From: Okamejei kenojei
Lineage: Eukaryota
Direction: 5' to 3'
NCBI GenBank assembly: GCA_035221665.1
Contig: CM069174.1
Location: 10,850,001 to 10,914,000, forward strand
DNA: 64,000 nt
Below the pieces are notes generated by a model that saw only the letters and a program-made list of their open reading frames with translations, was not told the origin of the DNA and did no database searches. Shown here in pieces: positions 1,402-59,428 of this stretch (positions are counted from its first letter, which is position 1; each line of letters starts with the position of its first letter). The translations under genes and the position numbers were made by a program.

Positions 1402-1530
1402 TAAGAAGGAACTGCAGATGCTGGAAAATCAAAAGGTAGACAAAAATGCTGGAGAAACTCAGCAGGTGAGGCGGCATCTATGGAGCAAAGGAAATGGGCA
1501 ACGTTTCGGGACGAGACCCTTCTTCAGACA
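1402..1530 (-). mobile_element. Short Penelope-derived element with hammerhead motif
   Basis: AAGGAACTGCAGATGCTGG family; direct repeat ATGTTATGTT at 1392-1401 and 1531-1540. Confidence 0.75.
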
Positions 1531-2221
1531 ATGTTATGTTACTTTATGTAAAACAGATTACAAAAGGCAGTTTAATTTCAAACAATTACAATTTATTTTT
1601 GTTATTACCTGGGCAAATGCAGCAATTTGCCTTGGTTACTGTGTGTTTTAAGTTCAACCACCACTAGGCACTGACTTGAAGGAACGGATTGCCTTGTAGA
1701 GAATTAATCTTGTCAAATAAAGCAGACACATGCTAATAGGCTGCACTGCCCATAGTTGAGGAGACAACTCTAGTACAAACTTGTGCTCTGTTTAGTGTTT
1801 GTCAGATACTGTTTCTGTGTAGATATTAGGCTCTACTGTACCATCATCATCGAACAAATGGACACTCACATCCTAGTCTTATTCACATGAAGCATGGAGA
1901 CTTGAGCAAAGCACCAGTGGGCCCTTGGATCTTTATGTCAGAGATCAATGGCATTCACAGAAGAAATAAATTATATCACTTTTAAACGAATGAAGCTTTC
2001 CCACAGCTGTTGCATTATTGGTACATGGACAAACCATTACGATTTCGCCCAAGAGACCAACAGGAGTATTTTTGAGTTGGTAGACAGGGTAAAACCTGTA
2101 GCGGAGAACTTCAACCTGCTTCAGAACTTTTATTTGGTTTGCAGCTGCTTTGTAAAACAAAAGGTAGATTTAAAAGCAAGACACCTGTGATAGTCACTGC
2201 CTCTTTCCCTTCTTCAATTTG

Positions 2222-2252
2222 TTTATTTTATAGAACAAGGTAGATCTTTATT
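2222..2252 (-). terminator. Candidate proximal polyadenylation signals of the INPP1-like gene
   Basis: Two TTTATT hexamers on + (AATAAA on -) about 140-170 nt past the stop codon. Confidence 0.4.
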
Positions 2253-2390
2253 CTGGTATATTGTTTGAGTGTTATAAAATAATGTCTATTAAGCCCATTT
2301 AATGTTTATAAAAAATAATTGGCTCGGAATAGGACAATTAGATTATTTTTGGTGACCCATTGCCTCTTAATTGTAGTGTGAAATAATACT

Positions 2391-2880
2391 CTACTCTACC
2401 AAAAGTGCATTAATAATGGTCTCCAGGTGCCGTTGAGACCTGTAAGCCACAAGGCCTCCTGTGTTGGCCCATTTCTCGGTTTCTTTTGACCCTTCATCGG
2501 GCATCTTGTATTGAAGTTCTGGATTGGCCCCGGGGCTTCTGCTCTTCACCTTAGCCAGGGTTTTGGCAAGATTTACAATGCCCCCTCCTATGGATTTCAA
2601 GATGGCATGTGGGGCACAGGTATCCCATTTAAAGGTAGTGTCTGCTGTGACAACATAAGCATCTGCCAAGCCAAGGATTGTACACAGGATTTTGTATCCT
2701 GCCCCAGAAGCATAGTACAGTTTGTCACCACAGAGATGAGCTAGTGCTTTTGTGATGTCTTCCTTCTCACTTGAGCTCATGACTATCGAAAGAAGGTTGT
2801 GATGTGCAGGAGGCTGCTTTGGTATGGAATGGATATTGGTTCCATTGTAGGAAATACCCCAGTAATATTTCCCCTTCCAT
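2391..2880 (-). CDS. INPP1: INPP1-like inositol polyphosphate 1-phosphatase, last coding exon (5/5)
   Basis: Acceptor AG at 2881-2882 after a pyrimidine tract. Encodes (R)WKGKYYWGISY...GAGYKILC...TTFKWDTCAPHAIL...WANTGGLVAYRS, with the WD motif of the Li-sensitive phosphatase family. TAG stop at 2391-2393. Orthologue versus paralogue is unresolved. Confidence 0.93.
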
Positions 2881-3221
2881 CTGCAAAAAGAAAAAAAATA
2901 CACGAGGGAAATAATTTTACACCTTGACAAACCTAATAACTACATGTTATAATGCAGACATTAGTTCCATCAAAAAGCTGTGAAGTGGTGTTGGTTATCT
3001 GCTAATTGTGATCTGGATACTGACATGAACAGACCACTGATTTTCTACAATATGAAAAATTATGCAGAATGCAGCATTCATCATCCATCTCAAAAGGCCC
3101 ATGAGAAGGTGGTAGGTAGCCACCTCTTTGAACTGTGCTATGTTACCCCAATAGTGCTATTTGGTAGGGAGTTTTAGGATTTAGACCCAGCAATGACGAA
3201 CGAATAGTGATATATTTCCAA

Positions 3222-3412
3222 GTTGACACAAAGTGTTGCAATAACTCAGCAGGTCAGGCAGCATCTCTGGAGAAAATGGATAGGTGGCATTTCAGTCTGA
3301 AAAAGGATTCCAATCCTAAACATCACCTATGTTCTCCAGGGATTCTGAATGACCCGCTGAATTACCTCAGCACTTTGTCGTCTTTTGTAAATTAGTATCT
3401 GCAGTTGCTGGT
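3222..3412. mobile_element. Inverted dimer of the same short element (degenerate)
   Basis: GACACAAAGTG..ACTCAGCAGGTCAGGCAGCATC arm and its reverse complement. Confidence 0.7.
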
Positions 3413-3974
3413 CTCTATTTGTCTCGATAGTGCCCAACCCAGGCCACATAAGAAGATTTACAAACTCACATTACAATTGCTCCACAATCTTAAATCTCTA
3501 TTCCTTCACTGTAAATGACTCTATTGTCATCTTGTATTGTTGTACTGCTGACCAGATTGCACGCAACAAAAGCTTTTCACTGTACACGTGACAATAAACT
3601 AAATTCTAACTATTTCCAAGTCGTGGTTGTCTGCAATTTGAAGGGCAACCTGCAGGTGGTGGTGTTCCTATGTTCTGTTACTATTATATTTCTAGGTGGC
3701 AGAGGTCACAGGTTTGGGAGGTGCGGTTGCAGAACCTTTAGCCAGCTATTCTTTTGTATCTTAAAGAATTTTAGAAAATGGGTAGAGTTTTCTGCATGCC
3801 CTCAAAGAAAAGAACAATTGCCTTCAAATGGTACTGGTTTTGATCGTCTTCCTTCTAACATGTATTTGCTCAAGATGCAGTATTTAGATTGGACTCTGAC
3901 CACTCAAAATACTATTCGATTGACCAGGCAGATAACCAACACCCTTTCATTGCAAATACTGAAAATCACTCCAC

Positions 3975-5198: not shown

Positions 5199-5447
5199 CT
5201 AATGGGAGAGAAAGATAACAACTAAAGTATTTAAAGAAATTACACAGTTAATTTAAACAGTCTCCAGCAGATTTTAAAAGAAACCTCATCATGAGTCTGT
5301 CCAAGACAACAACCCAAATTCTCTCCAAGCCAGGATCCCAGTGAAGTAGAGCAATAATTGAGGGCAGATATTCTCTCGCTCTCCCCCTTCCTTCCGATTA
5401 AAATTCATGTCTCACTTGAACTCATCAACATTTCAGAGTATTGAAAT

Positions 5448-5570
5448 AAGGAACAGCAGATGCTGGTTTACCAAGGAAAGACACGAATTGCTGGAGTAAC
5501 AGCGGGTCAGGCAGCATCCCAGCAGAACATGGATAGGTGACGTTTTGGGTCAGGACCCTTCTTCAGACGA
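5448..5570 (-). mobile_element. Short Penelope-derived element (hammerhead core mutated)
   Basis: Family sequence; GAAA changed to AAAA. Confidence 0.7.
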
Positions 5571-7065: not shown

Positions 7066-8659
7066 TTAGCAAACACGGTTAGTACTAGAAGTCCCGTTTA
7101 CTTTGCCACATTTCAGAGAACCAAAGCAAAGGAGGCCATTCAATCCATCATGTAAATTCAAATTGATACTAAATATATAAATAAGTGGCAATTCATGAGA
7201 CCCAAACTTTTAGGGTCTGCCAGTATCCCACCCAGGCAATTTCCTGAATACAAAACCGTCTCTCTTCTGATTTGATCAGACCCAAACTAAAAGGTTAACA
7301 AATGTACTTTGGAGTGGAGAATTTATTAAATCTGGTTCACCAAAATACTACAAAAGGGCATTGCAGCCAACACAAACAGCTGCTTGTAAAGGACCTCTGT
7401 GGGCCGGCTTGGAAATAAAAATATCAGATGTTATGTTGGAATGCAACAGGAAAGGTTTCACAATAACATTTACTCCAACTGCATAGTGTGGTTCTCTGAA
7501 ACAACATTACAACAGGTAAAGGTACACAGGAAAATCTCAATATAAAAATATTACAACCAAAACACTATCCCAGTGCATGATTCCCAAACAGGCTGAAGTA
7601 TTAAGTGCAGAGATTCAGTAATTCCTCTCAATCAAGCTCGGTGACCACAGATGTACTTGACTATAGTTGTTTTACATACATAATTGACATGCAACTGTGC
7701 TTCACTCACTGCATCTTTCTGGAGAAATTGCAGCAGTTTGCTTCCTCTGCTCTTTTAAACAAGTGACTGAGTAAATTGACTTTATTTGCTGTACAAAAGG
7801 CAATTTGGTACGAGGAAAATCATTTGCTAATGCCATGTTTTCACCAAATAATCTGCAATATAAATGTTGATTTAAAGGGAAGCCATTGCAAATGATTTGT
7901 TGGATGTAATGGTATACTCATTTATTAAATTTTAACCTTAGACAACCTCAAAAATTGTCGTCTCAATGGGCAAATTGTTTTATGTTTAAAGCACGTGATT
8001 GTAGATTTGGTACACTGATAACAATGGATTCAATAAACAGTAGCATAGTGGTTATGTTACTGGATTCATAGCTCAGAGAGGTGGACTTATATGTGAATCT
8101 GTTGTGCACTAATGTAATTAATTCCGAACAGTATTCTGAAGTGGTTTAACAAGCCATTCGGTTGAGGCAATTTGAGGTGGGCGATAAATGCCAGAATATC
8201 AGCAACACACACATTCAAAAGGTAAACTGGATTTACTGAATCTCTACACTGTGGCCAGCTAGTGTTCGTACATACAACCTTGTAATTAGAATGGAATGCA
8301 CTATCCTTTAATCAGTGTGTGCCTTACATTGCTTGATGCATTCAGGTTTATGCCTTTAGGCTTGGCCATTCCAAATCTGTGTTTCCTGCCTATAAAACAG
8401 AATTTTGAAAGTGCTTGAGGCTTTTGACTAGTCTAATTGTGCTACCACTTTGAAACAGCAGTCCATTTCATCCCACTACCCTGATCATTTCCTCTAACTT
8501 TTGAACATTTCCATTTAAAAACTTTAATGCACATCCCTTTTTTAAATGATTATGCATTCTGATTTTTCACACTTTCTGGCAGTGCATTTCAAATCTGAAT
8601 ACTTTCCCAACACTCACTTTTAAGTGAGAAGGGTCAGGCTTCAGGTTCCACTCCAGAGA

Positions 8660-8870
8660 CACAATGAACTGCAGATGCTGGTTTACAAAAAAAAGATAAA
8701 CTGCTGCAGTAACTCAGCAGGTCAGGCAGCACCTCTGGAGAACATGGATAGGTGTCATTTCAGATTGGAAGTCTTCTTCGGACTGAAGAAGGGTGCCAAC
8801 CCGAAATGTCACCTATCCATGTTCCCCAGAGATGCTGCCTGTCCCGCTGAGTTGCTCCGGCATTTTGTCG
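8660..8870. mobile_element. Inverted dimer of the short Penelope-derived element
   Basis: Inverted arms; plus-strand CTGAAGAAGGGTGCCAACCCGAAATGTC at 8783-8810. Confidence 0.75.
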
Positions 8871-8916
8871 TCAATGCTGGAGTTGAGTTCTAGTGCAGTG
8901 CTGAAGCTGATATGTA

Positions 8917-12030: not shown

Positions 12031-12489
12031 GGTGGGACATACAGCTTATTGAGACAACTTCAGTTTAGAGATGTATACCAGCCTTTTGTAGCAAAGGTTA
12101 ACAAGCCTGGCTCCAGTTGCACAAGGCTTGGTGTGGAATAATATTTTTTATTGTATCCAAGGAAGGATATGCTTAACAAATACAGAAAATGTGAGAAGCA
12201 GTCAGCAGGTCAAGCAACATCCATGGAGGGGAAAATCATTCAACATTTCAGGTCTAGAACTCTTCAAAAGAACTGGAACGGTGAGAAAAATGTGTTTTAA
12301 ATTGCAGAGATAGAAAGACGGTGAACAGTAGAAATGGGTGTGATAGAGTGCAGAACAAACCTGTGAAGGGAACAATTACTTCAAAAACTGATAGTTGGAG
12401 ACAGATTTACATAAAAAATAAACAAATTGAAACAGATATTGCCACATCTGTTGAATAGGAAAATGTGACTACCTGCAATTAGTTTTAAC

Positions 12490-12860: not shown

Positions 12861-13699
12861 GGGGGGGTGGGGGGAAATGAGGTCAGTGATTGGCTGGAAG
12901 ACAACGAGTTGCTGTTCAGTGGTGGGCTAGTTGCCCAGAGAGAGGCATGACCATGAACAGGTATCCAACAGTTGCCGTTCAGCTTATACAAGCTAGAAGG
13001 CAGTTTTACAATGTAAAATGTATTTGAACATTTAAAGAAAAGCAATGCATTTAGTGACCGACCACTTTACAAATCTTTTCATAACATTAAGTGTGGTCAC
13101 CGCCATGCGAAAGAAGTAAGTTTCGACAAACAGTAATGTGAATGCGGCCAGTTTATCTGTTTTAATTGTGTAGAAAGTGTTTTTTTAGTAACATCAGGCT
13201 ATTTCGCGGGTGTGGAAGCCGATAAATATTGCTCAAGAGACAGGAACTTACATCCCGCTCTTCTCAAAACAAAAAAATACCAAGGAGACACAAGGAACTG
13301 CAGATGCCGGTTTACAAAAGAAACACGAAGTGCTGGAGTAACTCAGTGGGTCGGACACGATTTTATTACTTTTACCAAAGAGAACTGACTTCGTATCATA
13401 AAGATGACACCGCCAGGATAACCATCTCTGAGCATGGATGGTTATCCTGTTTTTTTTGTATACTTGTCTCTGGAAGCAGCATGTGGAGCCTTCAGGTAAC
13501 GTTATTTGTCATTTAACATAGAGATGATAAGTTAGGAATCTCTAGGGTTTCTCACACCGAGAGGGCCGTGGAGACACAGTAAGTAGCTAAGCATATTCAA
13601 GGCTGAGCTAGGTTTTGTGCATTAAGGGATCAGTGGATGTGGGCAATTGAGCGATTTTAAGTCGAGGTGTCGGTGACTGCCTATTATTTTTGTTGCATC

Positions 13700-16005: not shown

Positions 16006-16174
16006 TGTGTAGGAAGGAACCGCAGATGCTGGTTTACACTGAAGGTTTACACCTGGTTTGCACCAAAGAAATCGTCAGACTGAAGAAGAATCCCGACCCG
16101 AAACGTCACCCATTCCTTCCATCCAGAGATGCTGCCTGTCCCGGTGACTTACGCCAACATTATGTGTCTATCTA
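16006..16174. mobile_element. Inverted-structure short element with 14-bp TSD
   Basis: AGATTGTCATCAAA at 15992-16005 and 16175-16188. Confidence 0.8.
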
Positions 16175-24590: not shown

Positions 24591-24659
24591 TCCCTGTGGC
24601 ACTGGCTACTTTTGAGGTTTTAGTTGCGTCATTTGCCGTTGTTTGAAACCAAATGCAAA

Positions 24660-24750
24660 AGAAGGGTCTCGACCCGAAACGTCGCCTATCTCCTTCGCTA
24701 CCTTAGATGCTGCTGCACCCGCTGAGTTTCTCCAGCCTTTTGTGTACCCG
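24660..24750 (+). mobile_element. Short element, truncated before the CTGA
   Basis: GAAGGGTCTCGACCCGAAACGTCGCC... Confidence 0.7.
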
Positions 24751-30309: not shown

Positions 30310-30580
30310 AAAGAAGGAACTACAGATGCTGGTTTACAATAAAAGAAAGTTCTAGATTAATTCAGCGGGTCAGGCAGCATCTCCGGAGAACGTGGATTGG
30401 TGATATTTTGGGTCAGGACCCTTCTTCAGACTTTTTTAGTAGGGTTGGAGAGAATTTCTTTCCTTGCATTCTTTTGCCCCTCTAAATCAGTCTGAAGAAG
30501 TTTCCTGACTCTCAACATCACCTATCCACATTGTCCAGGGATGCTGCTTGACCTACTGAGTTACTTCAGCACTTCGAATC
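30310..30580. mobile_element. Inverted dimer of the short element (degenerate)
   Basis: Arms at 30310-30430 and 30488-30580. Confidence 0.7.
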
Positions 30581-31059
30581 CTTGCAACTTGACAAGGATT
30601 TGCTTTATGCAAGTTATTTTTGATGGGGAGTGCTAGTGAATTAAATTGAGGTTGCTTTATAATTTATATTATAAAAACAAATAATAATCTCCAATGGCCC
30701 TCTGTGTTACATGGGCCTTTAGTTTCTCAGTGTAAGTTGCATTGATGGAAGTAAGTGCAAGAAAGGAAGTTTACATTGCCACAAAGTAAATTCTTTATCA
30801 CCAGTGCGGTTTAACCAACATCATGCATACAGTGCGGAAGAATTTATTTGGTGTAAAAACTTTGCTCCTGTTTGAGAAGCTGCTTTTCAAATTCAGTTGT
30901 TTGGACATTTTTGTAAATAACAACTTTACACCACTTTGTGCAATGGTAACTCCAGCTTTAATGCAGCTAATGCAACAGTTCTGTTCTCCTCTCAAACTTG
31001 TCATCTGATGTTGTATAAACATTTGAAGTTTCAAAAGGGAAAGAGGTTACATTGAATCC

Positions 31060-39100: not shown

Positions 39101-40999
39101 TTCTCTTGTTCCACTGTATCTGCAGCAATTTTGCACCTTTTTTGGTCGAGTGTAATACACAGACTTGTTTTTATAAATGTGCTGAGATATTTGATTGTAA
39201 ATATTCAAACATGAAAGTGGTTTCAGCTGAAGAAATCTTGCCATACAAAGGATCTTGCTGTTATCCTTTAAAATCAGAGTATAGTTTTTAGTGTTATCTT
39301 GGGAGAATTGAAGGAAACTGGGATGTGCAGGGTGACTTGTGTTGTCTCTTCACACGTCCCCACTAGTTCCGCTTGCTCTGTTAAATAGCTCCTTGCAGGT
39401 AGATGAGAGAATGAAACCGAGTTTCCTTTCTCACAATTCCCTTTACAACCAAGTGTTTAACTCTTTTGAGGACAACGCCAGCTCTTCCAACTGATGTCTT
39501 CAAGCTCAACAGCTCTTTTCATGGCACTAATGGTACTACTTTTGCTTTGTTCCTTGTCCCCCCTCAATTGCCAGTAAACTTTATTCTATAATTCATTTTG
39601 TGTCAAGAGTTATCTTCGATGCATCTTGCAGAGGTTTCCTAATCACATTGTTCAGAGTGACATTTCTGATGTTTGGAATTTTGCAATAGCAAGCGGGTAC
39701 ATGTGAGTCTAAAAGCTTTATAAATGTAAAGGCTTGATTCAGAGCAAAAAGTACCAGTTATGTGAATCCAGCAGTATCTACTTAACAAGGTGTCGTCAGT
39801 CCCTCTCCCAGCTCTCTGCTTCCGGTGCACAGGAAGGTTTTTTTAAATCCACCCAGCCTTGCTCTTTTTGCAATATTTTACCAGTGCTATTCCCTCAGGA
39901 GCTTTTCTATTTGCTCTTTTCTCCCAACCCCCACCCAGCTCTCAGGCTATCAGAGGCCAACCTTTCAACCACTGCTTTAGTAACGACTTGCAAATTAGAA
40001 AGGAGGATCACCGAACAAGCAGCTGATCTATTATCAATAATTTTGCACCTGTCCAAACTGAATTTTCCCCTTTTCTCTCATAAAGGGTTGCGGAATTTGA
40101 TGGTTTGTGCCCACTTGGGCTGTACAGCACAGAAATAATCCGTTTGGCTCTCCACTTCTGCAGTAACTGTCGGTTGTTTCAAGCAGCAGGCTAGTTCACT
40201 AAGGTGATATTGTCTCTAAGCCTTGCTCTAACTGGTATGTGACTTCAAACTGTCTTCTGAACAGCTGCAAAAAGCTGAGATTTTCCACTATTTAATCATG
40301 GGTCAGAACTACATTGACTAATATTTGGCAGCTCTAAGTTAGCAGCAGGTGATGGTCAGTTTTGCAGTGACGTGGTTCAATGTTTTTCCAACAACTGTCA
40401 TTGCTGAAGTAAAAGTATAGTGAAGAAAGTAAGGGCATGAAAAGTTGTAAAGTTTTTTAAAATTCAATGTATCTGTCCTTGGAGCCTGGGTTGGGAAGGG
40501 TTAAACAGTTTATCCCTATTTTGCCACCAGAGCAGAATAAACAGTAATTAGAGTGGAATTCCTAAACGTGTTGTTGTTGGTTTATGGAGAACAGGTAGGG
40601 GTCTTCCTCCTCACATCTGTTCCATGTGGGAAAAGCTTGTCTTCAAACAGAGGGCGTCTTAAACAATTTGCATCTAAAGGGTGTGGGATCAAATCTTATA
40701 CTGTTCCCATCCCTGGGTTATTTGTGAAGATCTGAGAGTGGTAACAATTAATTTACTTAATTGAATGTGTTCCAAAATACATTCTTTCAACTTATAGGTG
40801 GTGATAGCGAATGCTAGTATATCTGAGCAGCTCGCGTTTCACATTTGATTATTCATTTTACCACTCAAACCATCACTCCTGAGGTACCAGTCCATGGGCC
40901 TTCTCCAGTACCTCACTCAGATGACCCATCTGTTGTTGATGGAGTATTTGATCATGAGGGTAATCTCACTGCAGGCAGAATAATAGATGTAGTAATAGA

Positions 41000-42230
41000 A
41001 AGGAACTGAAAATGCTGGTTTATACCAAAGAGAGAAAATGCTTGAGTAACTCAGCTGATCGGGCAGTTAGGTGACGTTTTGGGTCGGGACCCATCTTCAG
41101 ACTGATTGTAGTTGTGGGAGTGCACGGGAAAGGAAACGAACCAAGGTGGGGAAAAAACAGGACAAATTGGGGCCAGCAACAGATTACCTCAGGCATGATC
41201 GGCTGATTGTTGGCTGGATGAGGCCAAGAGGAATACATTATTGCAAACGAGCTGGTTAATGGACCTTGAGTAGAGGAAGGACAGGGGAGGGAGGTATTTG
41301 TAAAGGTTACATGAAATTAGAAAATTCAACGTTCATACCGTTGCAAGCTACCCAAGTGAGATATGAGGTGCTGCTCTTCCAATTTGCATGTGTCCTCACT
41401 CTGGCAATGCTGGAGACCCACGACAGGAAGGTCAGTGTGGGAATGGTAAGGAGAGTTAAAATGGTTAGCAACTGGGAGATGCACTTGGCTTTGCCAGACC
41501 GAGCATCAGCTTTCAGCGAAGCGGTCGCTGAGTCTATGCTTTGTCTCACCGATGTACAGGAAACATCAGGAACACACGTATGAGAACCTCGGTCCCACCA
41601 GGAAGGACTGCGGGGTCCCTGAATGGAGTTGAGGGTGGAAGTGTGAGGACAGGTGTTGCATCTCCTGCGATTGCTGGGGAAGGTACCTGGGGAGGGGGTG
41701 GAATGGGATGAGGGAACCAAGGAGTTGCAGAGGGAGCGGAAAGGTGTGGAGATGGGAAGATGTGATTTGTGGTGGGATCACATTGGAGGTTACGGAAATG
41801 TTGGAGGATGGTGTGTTAGATGCGGAAACTGGTGAGTTGAAAGATGAGGACCAGGAGAATTGTCCTTGTGTGGGGAATTGGTAGGTTTGTAGTAGACATC
41901 GGGTAATAGTCTATCTCCTGTGATGGAGACAGAGAGATGAAGAAAGGGGAGAGAGGTGTCCGAGATTAGTCCAGGTGAATTTGAGGGCAGGATGGAAGTT
42001 AGTGATGAGGTTCATGAATTCTATGCTGATGCAGGAAGCAGTCGTCAATGTAGCTGAGAAAGTTGAGGGAGAGGGCCAGTGTATGCCTGGAACAAGGATT
42101 GTTTGACGTACTCAACAAAAAGGCAGGGATAGCTGGGGCCAATGTGGGGGCCCATGGCTACACCTGTTAACGGAGATAATGGGAGGAGTCAAAAGAGATG
42201 TTGTTGAGAGCGAGGACAAGTTTATAAGAG
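41000..42230 (-). mobile_element. Decayed Penelope-like element: RT, GIY-YIG endonuclease and 3' pseudo-LTR with hammerhead motif
   Basis: Minus-strand remnants GVAMG..GPSYPCLFV, YIDD, CNTCP, LYIGETKHRLSDRFAE, GMNVEFSNF*, followed by the short repeat family terminus at 41000-41105. Confidence 0.8.
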
Positions 42231-42239
42231 GGTAGTGTT

Positions 42240-42535
42240 GAAGAAGGAACTGCAGATGCTGGAGAATCGAGGGTTACACAAAAAGCTGGAGAAACTCAGC
42301 GGGTGCAGCAGCATCTAAGGAGCGAAGGAGATAGGCGACGTTTCGGGTCGAGACCCTTCTTCAGACTGGTCAGGGATCAGGGAAACGAGAGATATAGACG
42401 GTGATGTGGAGAGATAAGGAACAATGAATGAAAGATATGCAAAAAAGTATCGATGATAAAGGGAACAAGCCATTGTAAGCTGTTTGTGGTGTGAAAATGA
42501 GAAGCTAGTGCGACTAGGGTGGGGGAGGGAGATAG
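42240..42535 (-). mobile_element. Longer, young copy of the short Penelope-derived element
   Basis: Family terminus plus ~170 bp body; possible AGAGGGTAG duplication at the flanks. Confidence 0.75.
42334..42367 (-). ncRNA. Minimal type I hammerhead ribozyme motif
   Basis: Minus strand AGU-CUGAAGA-A-GGGUC(UC)GACCC-GAAA-CG-UC: full conserved core, stem II, palindromic ACGU in place of stem III. Stem I is very short. Activity untested. Confidence 0.6.
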
Positions 42536-43511
42536 AGGGTAGATGTAGTCGGCAGCCACAGTGAGGTTTGGTATATTCAGAGACGCTGTTACGATTATGG
42601 TACCACTGTTGTAATCAGTCTTACTGCGGAATACGAGCTGTTCAACATGAGTCAGCAAACTTGCTGGCAAACCTCAGTTTGAAATTTTCTTTGCCATACA
42701 GATCAAGTCGCTACGTTAGTCTCTATTAAGCTGCTTGCTTTTATTCAGAACCAGAGTTGCACGGAGCAACAGTGAGGAAAGAGAATCAAATAGGTTCCTG
42801 CTCCTAACCACTGTTTGGCCGCCCCTCTTGAAAGTTGTGCAAGCTTGTCCAGTAGGCTTGCTCGTGGAAAATTGGTAGTTGTTTGAGAGCTCCATTGCCA
42901 CTTTCTGAGCTGTCATAGATAGTGCCTCCTGGGGAGATGAGCTATTTTATAATTGAAAAGAAAATGAGTTACAAAGTGAAAGGCTGCACCAGGAACAACC
43001 TCGCTGTTGAACCTTGCAGGTGGTGTCCATTGATTTATAGCCTTCCCTCTTCAACTCTATGAAGCTCGAGTGCTGTTGCGTGACTTTGAGTGCCAATAAA
43101 AGTTTGCTTCCTCCTACTTCAATGTCTTTAGATTTCCAGAAGTATTTGAGGAAGGGATAGAAGGGTAGCAAAAGTTCCAAAATGAGCTCATAAAAACTCT
43201 ATGCCTGAGGCAGTGAAAGACCAGGTATGCAACGCTGCTGTATTGTTTCAGTTGAGATTTATAGCACAGTGAAGGTGGCTTGTCCTGAGGACACTGAGTC
43301 GGAAGGATGCGAGAGCTAAACTTTGGCATTTTTGTTAATGCAATTTGGGGGATGGGTATTGAATGGAAAAACTGCTCCTCTAGTGTCTCCAAATAAAACC
43401 AACCTAATTTTCTACTCCTTGTAATGGTTTCTGGAGTGTTGAGATTGTACTAATACAGAAATAACAGGAAACAACTCAGCCATTGGCTTGCAGGAGATGA
43501 ATCCTATTCAG

Positions 43512-43642
43512 AGGGGTCTGAAGAAGGGTTTCAACCCGAAACGTTGCCTATCTCCTTCGCTCCATAGATGCTGCTGCACCCGTTGAGTTTTTCCAGCATT
43601 TTGTGTACCCTCGATTTTCCAGCATCTGCAGTTCCTTCTTTA
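43512..43642 (+). mobile_element. Short element with intact hammerhead motif (43518-43545)
   Basis: CUGAAGA-A-GGGUU(UC)AACCC-GAAACGUU; flanks AATCCTATTC / AATCCTACTC resemble a TSD. Confidence 0.75.
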
Positions 43643-43676
43643 GCAATCCTACTCCCTTACTTCCTTGATGTATTAT

Positions 43677-44505: not shown

Positions 44506-44601
44506 CAAGTCTGAAGAAGGGTCTCGACCCAACCCGACCCATTCCTCTCTTCAAAGATGCTGCCTGTCCCGCTGAGTTACTCCAGCATTTTGTGTCTATC
44601 T
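44506..44601 (+). mobile_element. Short element (GAAA lost)
   Basis: Family sequence flanked by CCAGATA repeats. Confidence 0.65.
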
Positions 44602-47600
44602 CCAGATATTCTAATGTTCTGTGATCTCCAGTGACATTTTACTTGGCCGTAGGTCTTCTGTGCACATTGACCTTTCATATCACATTGTCTCTAAAAGATC
44701 CATGTTTTTGGTTCACCTTTAGAATGCAAAATCAACACTCTTCAGTATAAATGTTTTTATTGCTCTTCAAAGATGTACTCCAAACAACCACAAACTAAAG
44801 GAAAAATCAAAACAACATTTCAACAGTTGACAGAAAAAACATTTTCTTTCTGCAACACATTTAGGTTTCAAAGATACTTCAACTTATAAAATAAGCCCTA
44901 ATTTTACCTGTGTAAATATTTCTTTGTACTGAGAACAAAATTGGACAGATTTAAACGTAATATTTTACACAATATGAACAGAACTAATTCAAGCAACTAT
45001 ATTAAAACTTCAGGTTATACAATATTGTATCTGTAATGCTTACACAACATATTTAGCGCTCATTTAATTTTATCCTCTGAGCAGATTTGTGAAGATTATT
45101 GGTGTGCCATTTTATAATGGTTACAATGAGTTGCCTCCCCTTCAAAAACTAGGTAGCTGTTTGAAATCTGAATAGTGCCTCTCGGCTGCTTTCTGGATAC
45201 ACAATGCCAATGTTGCTCAATACTCTGCTGAACCGTTTTGTTTTGTTCTTTATGGTAGTCCTTGGCCGAACAGCCTGCAGGCTAGCTCTGTGATTTCCCC
45301 CCCCCCCCCCCCCCTGTCCTCAATCCCATTCTATCAACCAAAACATTTATCATCTACAATAACACATTAACTTAATGTGTGCAGTCAAATGGCAATTGAG
45401 CATTTGTAAGATTTAACATCCGTACAATGAACTGTTTTAGCTTGGCCTCAGAGGTTGGCCAACATTGATCTTTAATGGTGATTGTGCTCATGTTGGAAAT
45501 TTGCCAGATTAGCCATTACGCTTCAATGTTCCAATTTTTTTGTTTCCATTAACCCGACCCTACATAGCTAAAAGCACTCACCTGGGTTCAACAGCATCCC
45601 TACTTGCAAACGTTGGTTTCATAAACCACTGCACACTATAATTTCACAAAACCTCAGTGTGATTATGTATTGTATTATTAAAGTTCCTATTTTAATATAC
45701 TTACAAAGTTATACTTGTGAATGTATAATAAACAAGGCCTTATTAACCCCTTATATTTCAGTTTAGTGGTAAAATAACTTTTCCTGAAAAGCTGTGTAAT
45801 ATTAAGATTGTTTTGGTACTTTAAACCATATTGCACTGGAGAGCTGAATGGGCATATGATTCTATTTATATCGAACTCTAGGACTCTCTAACAACGGTAG
45901 TGAATGTGGTTCACTTCTGGAAGTGAAGTTCTTGTAGCGTGCCACTTTCCCCACTGGTACAACAATACAAAATAGGTAAAAGCTGGTATTAACTCGAATT
46001 TGATTTACACATAGTCGCACTTTGAACTTGTACCATGAGTTGTGCCCAATAGGGGTGTGATGCAGTGTGTAATAAACATCCTCTCATTTCTTTGACTTTC
46101 CACAGTGCAACAGTTACCATTTCCAAAATCGAATCTGAACAAGCTTTCGTGCATTCAGAAATCTTTTCCTGAACCATGTTCAATGGCATGGCACTTCTGT
46201 TGCAGCACTGCTCTCCCAGGTACTTTCAGGTTACTTTTAGACTGAATTAATGATGATCTGTGTGCAGGTGGGGAAGGAAGCAACCAAATCTGCAATAGGG
46301 TAGAATTAGGAGCAAACATGGGAAATACGGTGATGCCAGCCACTGTTCTATCTTGAGGTTGTTGGAACCTAATGAAATAAAGGAGGACATTGTTTCCTTT
46401 AATTCAACGAGGAACCCTTAAACTTGAGAAACATTAAGATGAAGGTGATTCTAAAATATTTAACTATAATAATCTTTTGAGCTACTCCCTCTCATACAGC
46501 ATTCTACATTTGCAATAACTGTGACAAAAAAAGATTTGATACATAACCATCAAATCCTATGCACAGGACTTGAAAAATAATGTTAATTTACGAGTTCTTT
46601 ATAAGGGCCAGTTAAAATTGGACTGCACCCAAGCAAACATACTGCACTTCCCAAAACCTGTCTGTTTGGATCTCGCAGTGCTTTTTACAGAAGGATCCTA
46701 CCTTGTACAGCAAGGGCAATCTAGATTTTCCACCCTATTTAGATTTAATCCTGGGCAGAATCAATTTGTTGTGAATGTTTTAGGCAGATGAGGGGGCAGT
46801 TGGTCTTGCTTATATCTTGAGCACATTGCCTGAGATTTTTATTTTAAACACCACTCCATATCTCACCCCCATCCCCCACCACAGCCAAAGGGAATGATGC
46901 ACAGAATTGGTTAAAATCGGCCAAGACCTGGAAATGGTACTGGTTAGTTTTTTTTTTGGGGGGGGGGGGGAGCACCAGCAGCCATTAAGGGGACATACGT
47001 TTCCTACCCTGCACCCACATTTAAAATTGGGTCCACTGTCTCAGTAGATTGTGCCTGAAAATGTCCATGGTTGCAACAAATGTCCTCACTTTATAATCAT
47101 TAGAAATGGGTTCTGTTTATAACCGATGTGAGCATCGTTTTCCTTTAATCTATTTTCAAAGATGAATAAATACACAGTCCTCCTGTGAGGGGAGCAGTCA
47201 CTGTACAGGGCCAAATCATTTGATAGTCATCCAGTATGAGGTGACCTGTAAGTAATTCCTTTGTCGCATTGTATACCTGAGATTGAATCCACTCAATAAG
47301 GCCAGTAATGTCTACAATAATAAGTAACTGGTCTCAGTGATATATTTTAATTAGAATCCCACCAGTCTTCAATGTTTCTCAGTGAAATTAATGCTGATTT
47401 ATATATTTTTAAATGCAGGAAATACTGGCAGCATCTGCAGAGGGAGAAACGGTGTTACATTTCACATTGTCGATGACCTTTAATCAGAGCTAGGAAGATT
47501 TTAAAATTCAAACCTATTTTACATGGCAGACGGAGAGACCAAGAGACACAGGAAGACACATGTGGTAGGGGTGCCAACTGAGAGAGGGTTGTGAAGGCTT

Positions 47601-48089
47601 TTGTCCATCGATCCATAAGGAGGAGGTGGAAATGGGACGGTGAGTGAGGTAGGAGGAGAGAAATACCCAATTCTGGAACAGTGAGATACAGAATACTGCA
47701 GGTGCTGGAAATCTGAAATAAAGGAGAGTGTTGGAGATACTCAGCAAGTTGGTTAGCTTCTGTAACGAGAGACATAGAGTTGACGTTACAGGTTGATTGG
47801 GTTTCATTGGAACTGCCCAGCCTTTCCTGCTGTCCAAAATTGTTGTACTCAGTGGAGTTGTGATGGCTGTCATGCGCCCAGATGGGTAATTAAATGCTGG
47901 TCCTTGAGCTAATACTGAGCTTTGTTGGAATAGTGTAAGATGCGAAAGACAGAGATCAGAGTGAGAGGGGATGCGGAATTAAAGTGACAGGCAATTGGAA
48001 AACCCAGGGCAACCCCTGTGAACTCAGAGCTATAGTGCAAAGTGGTCACCCAACCTGGGCCTGGATCCTTAAGTGGGGACAGCATTCTC

Positions 48090-48325: not shown

Positions 48326-49399
48326 AAAGTGAGCACTGAATGCAACACACTAAATGTTTTCCCATCAACTGTAATGTTTTGTATGTCACAGCTCCGGAAT
48401 ATTTGTTGTATTCATCTCCTGTTTATCTTCTGCAGACAGGTCAGCTCTGATATGCCTTTCCCATCCTGGCTCAGGTAACACCACCACCTCTTGATTAACT
48501 CAGTCTCTTGGTCCCCACCTTGTCACAGACACATCCATTGTAACATCTGCCCCTTCCCTGCAACATAAAACATGTTTGATTACTTTTTTAACTTTTCCTA
48601 TTTCTGATGCAAGGCCATTGACCTGAAATGTTAGCCGTTTCTTTTCACACATGCTGCCTGACCGATTGGTAACATTTTCTGATTTTATTTTAGATTTGCA
48701 GGATCTGCAGTAGTTTTGGAATAATGCAGCACTGGAAGAAGTGATTCAGCCTGGCATGGCCCGTTAGAAAGAGCTGGTTTCACTCCATCCCCTTCGCACT
48801 ACGTTTGTTTTATATCCCTTTCAAAATAGGGACCTATTTCCCTTTTGAGAATTCCTATTTAAACTGCTTCCACTGCCCTTTTAGACTGTGTTCCGGATTA
48901 TAATTTTCCACCTTCTCGTGTCTTCTGATTACTGACCCTCTTGTCCATGTAGTTTCGCCAGATCAAATCTACTAAACCCTCTTAATTTTTCCCAGTTGTC
49001 TTGATGGGCATTTAAAATAACTGAGGTCACTTAAGGCTTTTTGTAAAAAAAATAAAATAAAAGTGGACCTATTATTTTTGCTGCCAACTTTTTTTCCTGT
49101 CCCTCTGTTTGGGTTCCCTCTGCTCCAGCATACAAAGCAGAAAGTGAGCTGGCAAACTCCTCAAATCCCACTGCCAGTTCTGTTTTTTTGATTGCTAGAC
49201 ATAAATGGGTGACAACAATCCAAGTTGGTTCCTCCAGGGTTGTTTGTGTTGTGATAAATGGTTGCTTTTTGCTGTATTGTCCCTTTTACTGACAGTTTCC
49301 ATTTGTACAGTGCCTCTTAATCTAGCCAAACGCTCCAAAACTGGAGCAGGTGACCAAATGTTTAGTTAAGAGTTGAGTTTTGAGGAGTGATTTCAGGAT

Positions 49400-50646: not shown

Positions 50647-50862
50647 GTTTAAGAAGGAACTGCAGATGCTGGAAAATCGAAGGTAGACAAATGCTGGAGA
50701 AACTCAGCGGGTGAGGCATCATATATGGAGCGAAGGAAATAGGCAACGTTTCGGGTCGAAACCCGTCTTCAGAAGGAGGGTCTCGACCTGAAACGTTGCC
50801 CATTTCTTTTGCTCCATAGATGCTGCCTCACCCGCTGAATTTCTCCAGCATTTTTGTCTACC
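50647..50862. mobile_element. Inverted dimer of the short element with 14-bp TSD
   Basis: TGTGCCTTTAATTT at 50633-50646 and 50863-50876; minus-strand core CUGAAGA-C-GGGU(UUCG)ACCC-GAAACGUU intact. Confidence 0.85.
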
Positions 50863-51239: not shown

Positions 51240-51735
51240 ATACGAGACACAAAGTGCAGGAGGAACTATGTGGGTCAGACGGCATCTGTGGAGGGAAATG
51301 GGCAGATGGTGTTTTGGATATGGGCCCTTCTTCAGACTGATGTAGTGGGAGAAAGCTGCAATAGAGAGTTGGGACAAAGCCTGGCAAGTGATCGGTGGGA
51401 ACAGGTGAGAGGGGAATTTTTCTATCACAGGTGGATGGAGTAAGTGACAAAGGCTCGGTGCGCAATGGATGCAAAAGGTTGTCATGTTTGGAGAAGAGAA
51501 GGACACTCGTGTCTCCTTATCACCTTTAGCTTTTGTCACTCCATCCAGCAGAAATCACCTCCCATCCTCTGTATACACCTATCATTTGCATGGCAATGTC
51601 TCACCCACCGCTCTTTCCAGCTTTCTCCCCCTACTGCAATCGGTCTGATAAAGGATACCAAACCTAAACTCTCATCTGTCCATTTCACTCCACAGACGTT
51701 GAGATCTTACAACACTTTCAAGATTTCAGCACCTA
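51240..51735. mobile_element. Older, longer inverted dimer of the same family
   Basis: Arms at 51240-51500 and 51515-51735 are degenerate reverse complements. Confidence 0.6.
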
Positions 51736-53798: not shown

Positions 53799-54689
53799 CT
53801 GTCAAAAAGAGAGAGAGGTTTTTTTTTCAATTGAGGTGTACCTGTACACTTTCTTTATGTTATTAAAACTCTAAATCGTCTCTAATATAGTGGGACCAAG
53901 GCCATAAGTGCATTCATTTCTTGTTCTGGACTAATTTGCATCACAGTGCAAGAAAAGAATCTTTACAGCTCCTAGGCCTTTTAAAACCATTACCAGTATT
54001 GATAATCAACTAGCAGATGCCTGAGCTGTAAATGTATTGGAAAGTTACCACCCCTTTGCAGCCAGTTTAAATGTGGATGAAAATTCACCTCCCACTAGCT
54101 GCCATTTTAAGCACATTATCGGGATGCAGTTAAATTGCCAGAACTTGGTTGAAATTCGCTGAGGCTATTAATGGCATCCTAGCAGTAGTTTTAATGTAAA
54201 TTAACCAGATGCTGGAAATTTAAAATAAAGCAGAAAATGACAGAACTGCATAGTAATCCAGATGGGATTGCCTTATTTAGATTTCAATCCTTTTGAATCC
54301 ACAGGCAGATCTCAAAGATGTTTAAAATGCACATTTTAATTTCGGAGTATTATTATAATTTGTATAACTCCATTACCCATTATAAATGCATAGCTAAAAT
54401 TTGCCCTCAGTCCATTGTTAAAATGATGTATGTGAAACAGACATTTTTGATTTTTTCAAATTCAAAGTTGCATATTTTAAAATGCATATATTCACATCCA
54501 ACTAATCGCCTGTTAGAACACAATGTTAAAATGTATGTACTAACAGCAACTTCCATTGCATCTTTTAACCCATTTTTCAGGGTGTGCATAATACCGAAAG
54601 GGTTGGCAATTTATTGCTTATTCCCAAATGCCTTTGCCACCCCTTCCTTGAACTGCTAGTATGTCATTAAGCACAGGGTTTTTTGGGTG

Positions 54690-55440
54690 AATGGGTCCCA
54701 TGTGCGGCATTTCTGGATATTGGATTGAGGGAGACCGAACAGAGTCCATTGGGGTAGGTAGAGTCCAAAGTTAGTTACGGCATGGAGAAAGATAGGGGGT
54801 GGAGGCCGAGGATACTGAGATAGGATTGAATGTATGTTTGTGTTTAAATGGTGGAAAAGATTAAAGGGGGATAGGAATGTACTGAGGTTGGATTGACAGA
54901 GCATGATGAAGTGAGATGGGAGATGAAATTACTGAGGATGAGCAGTTATTCAACATAGAACCTGAGGAAGGAAAGCAGTGGGAGAATTACTCTGGTATTT
55001 GGATGGGTTGGGAAGGGGAGGGACAGGTGGTGGAGGTAATAAATGAGAGGCAAGAGGTTTGGAACATGGATAGCTTCTCAGAGGAGTAGAGTATGGAAAT
55101 AATACAGTATAGACAGGCCAGGTATTGGATGGCATAGTCAGGTGGAAAGACTTGACATTGGGAAAAGATGTCATTGACCTGAATAACGCTGTTATTGCAA
55201 CAGTCTACAGTCAGCTTGTAGATGGTGAGGGCCATTTTTACAAATGAACAGACATTTTGTAGGGCTGGCAGAGATAGTCAGGACACTGACAGAGTGCACT
55301 GGGTGAGGTGAATTGGATAGGAGGAGTGTAGCGAGATTAGCCCCTAGTGGGCCTGTTGGGCAGGGATGTCGATGAAACTAGGTCAGGGCAATGAAGGTGG
55401 AAGCAGGACATCGAGAGGGTAGTGCACCTGAAAGAGGGGT
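54690..55440 (-). mobile_element. Old L2-like LINE remnant
   Basis: Purine-rich plus strand; minus-strand remnant LTVDCCN resembles the L2 DYCN motif. Confidence 0.45.
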
Positions 55441-56689: not shown

Positions 56690-57350
56690 TGATAAGAACA
56701 GAAGAAATAGAAGCAGAAGTTGGCCATTCAAACCCACTTGCCTGCTCTGTCATCTAATCACATTATGGATGACCTTTTTGCCTCAGTTCCAGTTACCCGA
56801 CAATGCCTTTAACGTCCAAAATTCTATCATTCCCTATCAACTATACTCAGTCACTGAGCCTCTACAGCCCTTCTAAGTAGAGAATTCCAAAGACTCTGGG
56901 TAAAGACGTTTCTCCTCATCTCTGGCCCTCGTTTCAAATAACCGAGGCACAGTAACATCTACCTGTCGAGTTGTGAAAATCCCTACGTGTTTCAATGAGA
57001 TTATCCATCTAAACTCTGGAGAGTATCAGCCAGTCTATTTAATCTCTGCTCATGTTATAATCCCATCAGGCAGCATCTTTCAGACCATAAGAACATTAGA
57101 AATAAAAGCAGGAGTTTGCCTTTGGGTTCCTTGAACCTACTTTGACAATCAGTTAGATCAAGAAAATGCGGTTTTATCAAAGGCCTTTCCAATCGCCTTA
57201 ATCTTACACTCCAACCCCTTAGCAATAGAGACCAATACACCATTTGCCTCCTTAGTTGCTTGCTCCTTTCACCCGTTAACTTTTTGCATCTTACGAGCAA
57301 TCACATCCTTTATGGAGTGACATTCATTTGCCACCTATCATGTTAAAAAT
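56690..57350 (-). mobile_element. Decayed CR1 fragments in GDF11 intron 2
   Basis: Two tail-like ATAAGAACA...GCAGRAGT starts and similarity to 62170-62580. Confidence 0.6.
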
Positions 57351-57577
57351 ATTCACAGTTCACTGCACCAAGATTTTTCTTCTCGTCTCTCTATTTCCTT
57401 TATCTGTTGAGTTAAATCAATGACCTTTAGTTCTCAATTGGATGCTTGTTTTTAAACTATAGATGATGATTAGTGACACTATTGCATCTTCAGCCACCAG
57501 TTGCGGGCTCTATTATCTTGAAACCAGAGATATCTGAGCCTCCTTAACACAGAGGGCTTAATGTGAACCATACTCAC

Positions 57578-57951
57578 CAATCCCTTCTCTCCACTTCCCG
57601 GAGATGTGATAGCCAAGTCATTCCCATCCATATCAAAGACGTTGATCTCAATGCCCCAGTTGGTGTGCGGTTGCTTGAACCAGTTCTGCAGAACGTGCTT
57701 AAAGTCGATGCTTTGCCAGCGCCCATTGCGGGTGTCCATGTCTATTTTTAAGGATCGGATCCTCGAGTGCCTGCTGCCTTTTTCCGTCACAGGTTTCAGC
57801 CTGAGGATTTGCAGGTACACTGTGGAGGCGTGCAGTACTGGTCGCAGGTATACCCACAGGTGAGCTCGCACCACGTTTGTAAATGTGACTTTGGGGCTAA
57901 ATTTAAAAAAGCAACATTTTGGACTCCCATCCACTTGGACACAGGGGTCAG
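57578..57951 (-). CDS. GDF11: GDF11 exon 2 (prodomain); exon 1 not found in window
   Basis: tgtag|CTGAC...TTG|gtgagt, 374 nt; DGSPKCCFFKFSPK...LWVYLRP...RIRSLKI...WQSIDFKHVLQNWFKQPHTNWGIEI. Confidence 0.93.
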
Positions 57952-58889
57952 CTACAAAAAGAACAAATCAAAAAAAACAGAATCAAAGCCAACTAATACA
58001 CATTTGACTCGATATAATTATTGTCAACTAACTGGTATGTGAATGGATAGAATTGTAGCAGCTAATACGTGGATGTGGATCGTGCAGGCAGATAAGATTA
58101 GTTCATTTTGGCATCATGTTTGGCACGGCCATTATGGGCTGAAAGGCCTGTTCCTGTACTGTACATGTTCTATGACTGGAAAGAATCGTAGCCAAAAATA
58201 CATATGATTGGATAAAATTGAATCTACTAATACATGTGATTGGATTGAATCGTACCAACTAGCATGCTTCATTAGTTATAACCATCACTGACTAATATGT
58301 ATCAGATTGGATAAGTACCTAGGCAATTGGTAGATGTGACTGTTTGAAATAGAGGCAACTGGCACTTTAGGTGATATAGAATCATGGCCAGTTAATACAT
58401 ATTTGAGTGGATGAGATTAAACCAACTATTATACAGTCAGAATCTTCTCCCCCCCCCCAGGATAGAAATATGGAAATATCAAATACTGGAGGGCATAGCT
58501 TTAAGATGAGAGGGGTAAAGTTTAACGTAAGGGTGGTGAGTACTTGCAGTGCGTTGCTGGGGATGGTGGTGGAGGCAGATCCTTAGTGGCATTTAGGTGA
58601 CTTTTTGATGGGCACATGGATATGGAGGGACATGGATTATGTTCAAGGGTCATTTTCAGCACGGACATTGTGAGCCGAAGGGCCTGTTCCTGTGCGGTAC
58701 CTGAATGGTAGTATAAACCTGATTGGATAGAATTAGAGGCGACTAATACATTTGATTGTACCGAATCATTACGAGCTATACATATCTGGATAGGATCAAA
58801 TACACCAGCACATATATGATTGGATGGTATCGCAGCCAACTAATGCATCAATGATTGGATGGATACATTTGGATAGAATCATCACCAGC

Positions 58890-59180
58890 GGCACGCTGGC
58901 ACAGCGGTAGAGTTTCTGCCTCGCAGCGCCCGAGACCCGGGTTCGATCCCGCCTACGGATGCTGTTTGTACATTCTCCCCGTGTTATTCGGTTTCTCCGA
59001 GATATTCGGTTTCCTCCCACACTCCAAAGATGTACAGGTTTGTAGGTTAATTGGCTTGGTATAGTGTAAAAAAATGTCCCTATTGTGTGTCGGGTAGTGT
59101 TAGTGTGCGGGGATCGCTGGTTGGCGCGGACCCGGTGGGCCTGTTTCCACGCTGTATCACGAAACTAAACTAACTAAACT
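58890..59180 (+). mobile_element. Full-length tRNA-derived SINE (V-SINE/HE1-like)
   Basis: Pol III A box TGGCACAGCGG at 58897, B box GGTTCGATCCC at 58940, central GGTTTCCTCCCACACTCCAAAGA, CR1-like tail with (AAACT)n. Confidence 0.85.
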
Positions 59181-59221
59181 ATCTTATTGGATAGAATCAA
59201 ACCGGTTATACATAGAGCCAG

Positions 59222-59428
59222 AAGGACACAAAGTGCTGGAGTAATTCAGCAGGTTAGGTTGCATCGCTGGAGAACATGGATAGGCAACGTTTTGGTTTGG
59301 GACCCTTCTTCAGACTCAAACGTGACCCAAAACATTGCCTATCCATGTTCTCCAGATATGCTGCCTGACCCACTGAGGTACTCCGCACTTTATGTTCTTC
59401 TTTGTAAACCAGTATCTGCAGTTCCTTG
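59222..59428. mobile_element. Inverted dimer of the short element in GDF11 intron 1
   Basis: Inverted arms; core GAAA mutated. Confidence 0.75.

Follow-up and report, generated by a model that had tools for sequence, protein, structure and literature searches.

The 64,000-nucleotide stretch of Okamejei kenojei DNA analysed here (assembly GCA_035221665.1, contig CM069174.1, forward-strand positions 10,850,001 to 10,914,000; hereafter the window, numbered from its first letter) harbours an abundant family of short dispersed repeats carrying a minimal hammerhead ribozyme motif. Judged by its sequence, the repeat is the hammerhead-bearing end, or pseudo-long terminal repeat (pseudo-LTR), of endonuclease-bearing (EN+) Penelope-like elements (PLEs). 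The short copies (∼95–135 bp) are probably dead-on-arrival complementary DNAs (cDNAs), inserted by the PLE's own reverse transcriptase (RT)/GIY-YIG protein from uncleaved RNA.

Linkage of the repeat to a Penelope-like element

At 41.0–42.2 kb, the end repeat of one subfamily (B) is joined to an open reading frame (ORF) for RT with a C-terminal GIY-YIG endonuclease. A sequence-only reading of this DNA had proposed that the repeat at 41.0–41.3 kb ends a Penelope RT/GIY-YIG element; this was borne out, the ORF being broken. An exhaustive search with 41332–41565 returned 316 related proteins at E≤0.001, supporting the proposed Penelope derivation of the repeat. Domain scans of 13 of these relatives revealed RVT_1 together with GIY-YIG in six, one of which (P0001) is a chimera with a CR1-type RT. 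Long relatives align back to 41.3–42.2 kb, to 60.8–61.0 kb and, weakly, to 47.9 kb, where the ORF link of another subfamily (C) is weaker (E 1.3e-4). Among the relatives of the GIY-YIG remnant, the nearest named ones belong to Leucoraja, Rhincodon, Hypanus, Narcine and Heptranchias (such names or accessions apply to 7 of 10 entries checked), which points to a cartilaginous fish, probably a skate or ray, as host. Pfam searches of the broken PLE frames gave nothing convincing, and a word-based search with 41307–41774 yielded 0 of 250 candidates, although the exhaustive search did detect relatives.

A CX2-5CxxC linker marks Neptune and Nematis (PMC8557442). All three Cys are present in the close skate relative P0005, and two of the three in the window copy. 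Since this linker fits Neptune and Nematis, and since vertebrate PLEs are reported only as Neptune and Poseidon (bioRxiv 10.64898/2026.07.22.740005), the parent element is likely a Neptune-type PLE, an assignment made on the linker motif. Neptune elements are active in fish (PMC12602865).

The subfamily A copy at 42.3 kb was considered as a possible 5′ pseudo-LTR for the ORF at 41 kb and rejected, given its different subfamily, its unrelated body and its own 9-bp target-site duplication (TSD). A metagenome scan with P0001, the chimera mentioned above, gave 80 loci of another element class, with neither the repeat nor a PLE ORF. In P0001, P0005, P0019, P0033 and P0043 the endonuclease piece is fused to unrelated domains, and four of the five are named from sharks, skates and rays; such fused predicted proteins are probably annotation artefacts stemming from the abundance of the element. 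The interval 60350–61018 is a rearranged PLE remnant, with an ORF part on the minus strand (60809–61018), an apparent endonuclease end on the plus strand (∼60360–60435) and no hammerhead copy.

Census and subfamilies

A search profile built from four window copies detected the family at all 14 places where the sequence-only reading had located it. Of 26 matches at E≤1, 25 were kept, 23 of them with E≤1.1e-4; the match at 53494–53521 (E 0.14), inside a TGF-beta exon, was discarded as chance. Controls with the same profile were nearly empty, a single match coming from five shuffles together (E 0.23) and another from the reversed sequence of the window (E 0.81). The profile added copies at 12.2, 13.3, 47.7, 48.6 and 51.6 kb beyond the places already named, and two more lie outside the profile list, at 47.5 kb and, weakly, at 54.2 kb. 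The density of the family is ∼1 locus per 3.2 kb, in support of the very high copy number claimed earlier, and the 20 repeat intervals sum to 3,410 bp, or 5.3% of the window. Taken together with this density, contig depths (see below) suggest a genome-wide copy number of probably 1e5–1e6.

What had been described as a single family comprises at least three subfamilies: A, a young group whose 6 arms are on average 88% alike in pairs; B, older, with 14 arms at 73%; and C, seen as older traces. The A and B modules are 69% alike, and their upstream bodies show no similarity beyond that of shuffles. The copies and associated features are as follows.

1399..1529 (−): single subfamily A arm, tailed; starts 2 nt before C3; core intact; stem II with 3/4 pairs; 10-bp TSD 1392–1401 / 1531–1540
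3219..3415 (both strands): head-to-head pair, subfamily B; untailed arm 3219–3295 (−) starts inside the motif; tailed arm 3293–3415 (+); core defective
5441..5568 (−): single subfamily B arm, tailed; starts 2 nt before C3; G12 lost
8655..8870 (both): head-to-head pair, B; tailed arm 8655–8785 (−); untailed arm 8779–8870 (+) with core and stem II intact; joint at a short palindrome before CUGA
12176..12276 (−): old decayed copy, third subfamily (C)
13284..13354 (−): 3′ part of a B copy, tailed; hammerhead gone
16006..16174 (both): inverted tail alone (∼16006–16045, −), filler and untailed arm (16076–16174, +); 14-bp TSD 15992–16005 / 16175–16188
24659..24749 (+): subfamily A untailed arm; starts inside CUGA; core incomplete
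30306..30583 (both): head-to-head pair, B; motifs ∼55 nt apart; minus arm tailed, plus arm untailed; neither retains G12
40997..41306 (−): PLE 3′ end, subfamily B; ∼200 nt untranslated body, hammerhead motif lacking G12, tail
41307..42236 (−): PLE ORF, broken and internally deleted; part of the RT core, Cys linker (first Cys changed), GIY-YIG endonuclease
42236..42533 (−): subfamily A copy, tailed; ∼165 nt upstream body; nested in an older RT remnant; 9-bp TSD 42227–42235 / 42534–42542
42337..42366 (−): intact minimal type I hammerhead motif; 2-bp stem I, C3 at 42364, 4-bp stem II, palindromic ACGU; predicted cut 42337/42336
43510..43644 (+): subfamily A arm, tailed; motif intact; starts 2 nt before C3; 7-bp TSD 43500–43506 / 43645–43651
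44509..44601 (+): B untailed arm; core defective; 7-bp TSD; 5′ edge ambiguous, may reach 16 nt further
47470..48001 (−): rearranged old subfamily C remnant; GIY-YIG end 47855–48001; decayed motif and tail 47683–47800; truncated core 47470–47497
48600..48712 (+): subfamily C copy, tailed; A-U replaces G-C at the base of stem II
50647..50862 (both): head-to-head pair, A; tailed arm 50647–50773 (−), core intact; untailed arm 50769–50862 (+); 14-bp TSD 50633–50646 / 50863–50876 around the whole pair
51244..51700 (both): head-to-head pair, B; upstream body on both arms; second arm cut short, tail state unreadable
54199..54245 (−): weak tail-region remnant; missed by the profile
59224..59432 (both): head-to-head pair, B; arm 59224–59318 (−) without full tail; tailed arm 59324–59432 (+) starts inside stem II; G12 lost in both
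60809..61018 (−): another PLE ORF piece, from beyond the RT core; hammerhead copy not attached

The absence of RNA polymerase III (Pol III) boxes, already remarked in the sequence-only reading, was confirmed: against consensus boxes, the best pairs of A and B boxes were no better than chance in four copies (matched by 69, 135, 117 and 7 of 150 shuffles), and neither ARAGORN nor Rfam found a tRNA-like match in the window repeat copies. Antisense tRNA-like A/B boxes were rejected by the shuffles, though one of the four copies reached 7/150. A tRNA-derived short interspersed element (SINE) was rejected likewise, the boxes being at chance level and ARAGORN and Rfam detecting no tRNA-like head. In the window Rfam gave four matches at E≤1, all below the gathering score and none a hammerhead; a spurious match to MIR1507 falls on the 50.7 kb copy. 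Viral contigs contained no exact match to the motif and no relative of protein P0091.

Insertion anatomy

Exact TSDs of 7–14 bp flank 6/16 loci, compared with 10/400 random pairs (p 1.6e-6). At 16.0 and 50.7 kb these duplications surround the whole inverted structure, indicating that an inverted pair is the product of one event. The 3′ ends of arms fall at two fixed places ∼34–37 nt apart. Tail state was read with an 18-nt tail probe, arms with 0–5 mismatches being tailed and those with 7 or more untailed, with a clean gap between the two. Seven inverted pairs are present, and exactly one arm is tailed in all six informative pairs (p 0.003–0.016), the seventh (51.3 kb) being unreadable. Inverted junctions at 3.3, 8.7 and 16.1 kb centre on a short palindrome before CUGA. 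No tandem array of the unit is found among the 11 Tandem Repeats Finder (TRF) rows for the window. An inverted 5′ copy and a 30–40 nt tail at one end are part of the published PLE layout (PMC8557442, PMC3846280).

Four single arms in or next to a minus-strand INPP1-like gene (1.4, 5.5, 12.2 and 13.3 kb) all lie in the sense of the gene, a small number around a gene with unmapped limits.

The hammerhead motif and its decay

Counts of core, stem and covariation are based on 24 aligned arms. The motif reads CUGAAGA, one extra base, stem II, GAAA, CG and UH at 42364–42337 (−), 43518–43545 (+) and 50772–50745 (−), as the sequence-only reading had spelled it, and the cut it predicted between 42337 and 42336 agrees in position. 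A hammerhead core is likewise readable at 1.5, 8.8 and 16.1 kb. With its core, the extra base after A9, G10.1-C11.1 and palindromic 15.2-16.2, the motif belongs by sequence to the minimal type I hammerheads. The three intact copies named earlier (42.3, 43.5 and 50.7 kb) are all A; the ORF-linked copy is B.

The claim of a full hammerhead core holds for few copies: 7/24 arms are free of core defects and 4/24 also keep all four stem II pairs, three of these with ACGU. It fails for most, G12, which sits in a CpG, being changed in 9/13 B arms, the ORF-linked 41.0 kb copy included. The catalytic core decays after insertion.

Stem II comprises 4 bp and stem I 2 bp; stem I alternates between U-A and U-G (10:7) and shows a two-sided change in the oldest subfamily. 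The four true pairs of stem II contain 2 cells with two-sided changes among the 24 arms. The example of stem II covariation put forward earlier was not sustained, as the C-G to U-A change at 43.53 kb concerns a fifth pair closing an impossible 2-nt loop, its G-to-A half lying at a CpG, and the 50.76 and 42.35 kb copies have identical four stem II pairs. The covariation score (0.205 vs 0.147) was reached by 3/500 shuffles; since the copies are related it is not decisive, and 3/8 two-sided cells are in the impossible fifth pair. Within subfamilies, 13/178 non-CpG core cells are changed vs 148/1218 elsewhere (p 0.06), so that excess conservation is not established. A better sign of selection is suggested by the sequence comparison itself: the module is common to subfamilies whose upstream bodies are no more alike than shuffles.

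A monomer is unable to form helix III. For the dimer, the active-like fold is 9–23 kcal/mol less favourable than the minimum in four core tests, by energies which ignore tertiary contacts and protein. Published minimal PLE hammerheads have no activity as monomers and low activity as dimers (PMC4209133; review PMC6765202), and the ribozyme of PAc, which is a Poseidon element from Anolis carolinensis, needs protein in order to cleave (PMC11167929). By analogy, cleavage here, if any, would probably take place as a dimer or with protein help. The tailed A unit (42237–42368 (−), 43515–43642 (+)) folds as a rod, with pairing between tail and body and between the final bases and the hammerhead core (z −1.9, −1.5); this modelled rod could be a ribozyme off-state or a priming signal. 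The rod fold also gives the tailed A unit short inverted ends. In inverted pairs the two motifs lie on opposite strands and are predicted to pair into one long duplex.

A fixed 5′ edge

Among the starts of the 22 A and B arms, 10 lie at −1 to −4 from C3 without upstream body, 7 further upstream (one ambiguous) and 5 further in, and none of the 22 lies at the predicted cut site. Counted by locus, the edge is present at 8/15 (p ∼3e-5 after allowing for the choice of interval).

Contigs of four public runs (of 23 listed), three DNA-type from three organisms and one guessed to be RNA, were placed on 42101–42700. What follows on junctions draws on the 24 loose-end rows listed out of 1,887 and on 15 joints out of 201, some of them uncounted. 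In the DNA-type runs, contig depth is ∼1e7 over the core, 2–6e6 over tail and body and 4–21 over the unique flank; relative to the flank this amounts to 0.7–1.6e6 for the core, 2–6e5 for the tail and 2–4e5 for the body, figures that are sums over overlapping contigs and not copy numbers. The guessed-RNA run covers the repeat and not the unique flank, and therefore says nothing about this locus.

Among the rows listed, the strongest 5′-side loose ends in the four runs are at 42366–42368, and there is none at 42336/7. Those at 42366/7 are long (medians 150–255 nt), AT-rich and heterogeneous, as expected of insertion junctions, and those at 42368 resemble the bodies of other subfamilies. An edge shared by two subfamilies with unrelated upstream sequence argues for a PLE mechanism rather than one short master. 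At 42366/42367 the first loose letter is by consensus a sense-strand G in 6/6 rows listed, as a copied cap would give; the letters at the 5′ edge resemble an initiator. Loose ends at 42537 are short (12 nt), and the A family therefore continues as repeat there. Opposite-strand joints 42274–42367 (3/4 runs) and 42274–42364 (2/4) have the same layout as the 16.0 kb locus, with an inverted tail followed by an untailed arm. The 15 of 201 joints listed include no empty-site joint across the 42.3 kb copy.

In a few contigs, joints from 42367/42368 back to 42330–42336 form direct tandems whose period of ∼32–39 nt matches the length of the motif by itself; in some, a single sense-strand G separates the units. 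These rare tandems are possibly alignment effects of other subfamilies.

Discussion

If insertion proceeds as inferred from PAc (PMC11167929), the PLE protein would cut both target strands and prime inside the RNA, at the tail end and at the tail start. Priming by one DNA end would leave a single arm. Priming by both ends would leave two head-to-head arms, of which one has a tail, and both ends priming on one RNA would leave an inverted tail plus untailed arm, as at 16.0 kb. The PAc protein cuts and extends both strands and primes at two internal sites bracketing the tail, ribozyme cleavage being unneeded: ribozyme mutants left insertion unchanged, and RNA-seq gave no reads ending at the cut site (PMC11167929). 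The cleaved RNA would not be the template in the model. Because the PAc template needs ∼55 nt of ORF past the priming site (PMC11167929), a repeat would, by analogy, be competent only where it forms the 5′ end of an RNA that carries the ORF. The Penelope pseudo-LTR has an internal TATA-less promoter (PMC2377424). We suggest, as the step of which we are least sure and with slightly less than even confidence, that the 5′ edge is the RNA start and that short copies are run-off products of priming close to the 5′ end of a transcript that carries the ORF. Long copies would then need tandem read-through RNA, and the ribozyme would probably be kept by selection only in active master elements. A more tentative generalisation is that a PLE transcribing from the 5′ edge of its hammerhead, with RT priming ∼95–135 nt downstream, turns each monomer transcript into a full-length, cap-marked 'leader' retrocopy.

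Several points weigh against this scheme. As regards insertion and parentage, 10/16 loci lack a clear duplication; the window holds no direct junction of subfamily A with the ORF, its 42.3 kb copy being a nested insertion, and the continuation of A into an ORF is a weak loose-end consensus at 42537 (agreement 0.56–0.63). A full-length copy with a partial-tandem pseudo-LTR was not found in the window, and contigs do not reveal where an RNA begins or stops. Head-to-tail joints of the short unit do exist, though few (depth 30–250 vs ∼1e7), and PAc is a Poseidon-clade element, so that its transfer to this family rests on analogy. As regards the edge, the extra G is a matter of consensus only (agreement ∼0.3, from 24 of 1,887 rows), occurs in just two window arms (43.5 and 59.2 kb) and could be produced by variants of other subfamilies. 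The letters before the core fit a splice acceptor equally well; in Drosophila virilis, a Penelope intron ends at the matching spot, the 5′ end of helix I (PMC4209133), and the Penelope start is >100 nt upstream of that spot (PMC2377424).

These points bear on alternative origins of the edge. It could arise at the level of DNA or of processing, by template switch or fold-back at the palindrome, by a splice acceptor or by endonuclease resolution, a possibility to which, for the edge alone, we give serious but clearly minority weight. The centring of the junctions at 3.3, 8.7 and 16.1 kb on the palindrome before CUGA fits it, palindromes at PLE inverted junctions having been read as self-priming (PMC3846280), and so do the D. 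virilis intron end and a pyrimidine run before YAG in the A body. Fold-back sits poorly with the single arms at 1.4, 5.5 and 43.5 kb, which share the edge without a full inverted partner (at 43.5 kb, a 6-nt inverted remnant only), and a spliced template would leave a common first exon, whereas the flanks at 42366/7 are heterogeneous. The edge could also belong to a true non-autonomous mini-element with an internal promoter, recopied in trans by the PLE protein in the manner of a SINE. A sharp 5′ edge with TSDs around 130-bp units, the very high contig depth over the unit, the rod fold of the tailed A unit with its paired ends, and the presence of the family in the guessed-RNA run would all suit such an element, and non-autonomous PLEs have been described in Chlamydomonas (PMC8557442). 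We nevertheless hold it to be unlikely: the same edge is found in subfamilies with unrelated upstream bodies, the A body has ∼1/3 of the core depth and continues as repeat past 42537, Pol III boxes are not beyond chance, and the inserted copies lack the ORF that the PAc template requires (PMC11167929).

The sequence-only reading had favoured a non-autonomous or truncation-derived, retrozyme-like family. A retrozyme proper would have tandem transcripts that self-cleave at the hammerhead, its units then circularising and reinserting. The unit is indeed short and non-coding and contains a hammerhead motif, rare head-to-tail joints of 93–135 nt occur in the three DNA-type runs, and retrozymes are reported as derived from PLE ends and present in the one chondrichthyan sampled (bioRxiv 10.64898/2026.07.22.740005). 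The window gave this idea no support, since it holds no array of the unit among its TRF rows, neighbouring copies are paired in inverted orientation and no arm begins at the cut site; moreover the motif is minimal rather than canonical and the active-like dimer fold is costly. A non-LTR retrozyme thus appears very improbable, and insertion of PLE cDNAs from uncleaved RNA is the reading we retain.

The family resembles EN+ PLEs of the Neptune clade in its RT and C-terminal GIY-YIG ORF, Cys linker, hammerhead in the end repeat, head-to-head inverted copies, 30–40 nt tail at one end only and TSDs (PMC3846280, PMC8557442). Unlike the Neptune PLEs described, most insertions here hold the last 95–135 nt only, at an estimated 1e5–1e6 per genome, and the accessible parts of the same papers describe no sharp edge at the 5′ boundary of the hammerhead. 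The core, the single base between 9 and 10.1, G10.1-C11.1, palindromic 15.2-16.2, the lack of helix III and the mostly single dispersed motifs are those of metazoan PLE hammerheads (PMC4209133). Schistosoma hammerheads differ in having a stem II of 7–8 bp and a stem I of 4–5 bp, against 4 bp and 2 bp here, and D. virilis likewise has a 2-bp helix I (PMC4209133); the main text of that paper, as far as accessible, does not name cartilaginous fish among the hosts of PLE hammerheads. As in PAc, two internal priming sites would bracket the tail, ∼60–100 nt downstream of the cut site, with a presumably uncleaved template (PMC11167929). PAc belongs to a different PLE clade, the window family is known from sequence alone, and no fixed 5′ edge is reported for PAc in the accessible text (PMC11167929). 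Non-LTR retrozymes are also short, non-coding, hammerhead-bearing and related to PLE ends (PMC7229834; bioRxiv 10.64898/2026.07.22.740005), but form head-to-tail tandems and circular RNA and have canonical hammerheads (PMC7229834), whereas here the hammerhead is minimal, the copies lie dispersed or inverted, and their ends do not fall at the cut site.

The literature already describes minimal hammerheads at the ends of PLEs, as well as the inverted copies and the tail; the value of the present family is in its scale and regularity. In a literature search outside which most subscription papers and repeat databases lay, no account was found of PLEs with a fixed 5′ edge or with priming from both ends, or of this family in cartilaginous fish. 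As the family makes up ∼5% of the window and probably counts 1e5–1e6 copies, correct masking is needed, and it should be classed as PLE, not as SINE, miniature inverted-repeat transposable element (MITE) or microRNA precursor. Direct predictions on how PLEs form inverted, tailed insertions follow from the fixed 5′ edge together with the rule of one tail per pair. Fold-back pairs in transcripts would form RNA duplexes of 70–100 bp, a possible substrate for editing or silencing. Should the leader-retrocopy model be true, hundreds of thousands of copies, many of them two-armed fold-backs begun at both ends of the cut DNA, would preserve the PLE mechanism in fossil form, including the RNA start, the two priming sites and the head-to-head joining, and some copies may have turned into self-propagating mini-elements.

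Other genes and elements in the window

Exons of an inositol monophosphatase-family (INPP1-like) gene lie at 2.4 kb, and a TGF-beta gene at 53418–57967 (−), downstream of it. This arrangement is that of the myostatin neighbourhood, but the mature domain looks closer to GDF11. An open RT fragment of 378 codons at 10916–12052 (RVT_1, E 2.9e-25) is presumably CR1-like. The element at 8915–10524 begins ∼45 nt after the 8.7 kb pair and has 140-nt inverted ends, 96% complementary, around a transposase-like frame (9330–9776, −); it resembles Tc1/mariner, Pfam giving no match. At 6786–7066, a 281-bp element with 89-nt inverted arms, 97% complementary, and a weak Rfam MIR2606 match looks like a young MITE-like insertion. 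Further repeat families at 12.7, 22.6, 26.2, 32.5, 34.7, 48.1, 58.1 and 62.2 kb resemble 3′ ends of long interspersed elements (LINEs) or SINEs.

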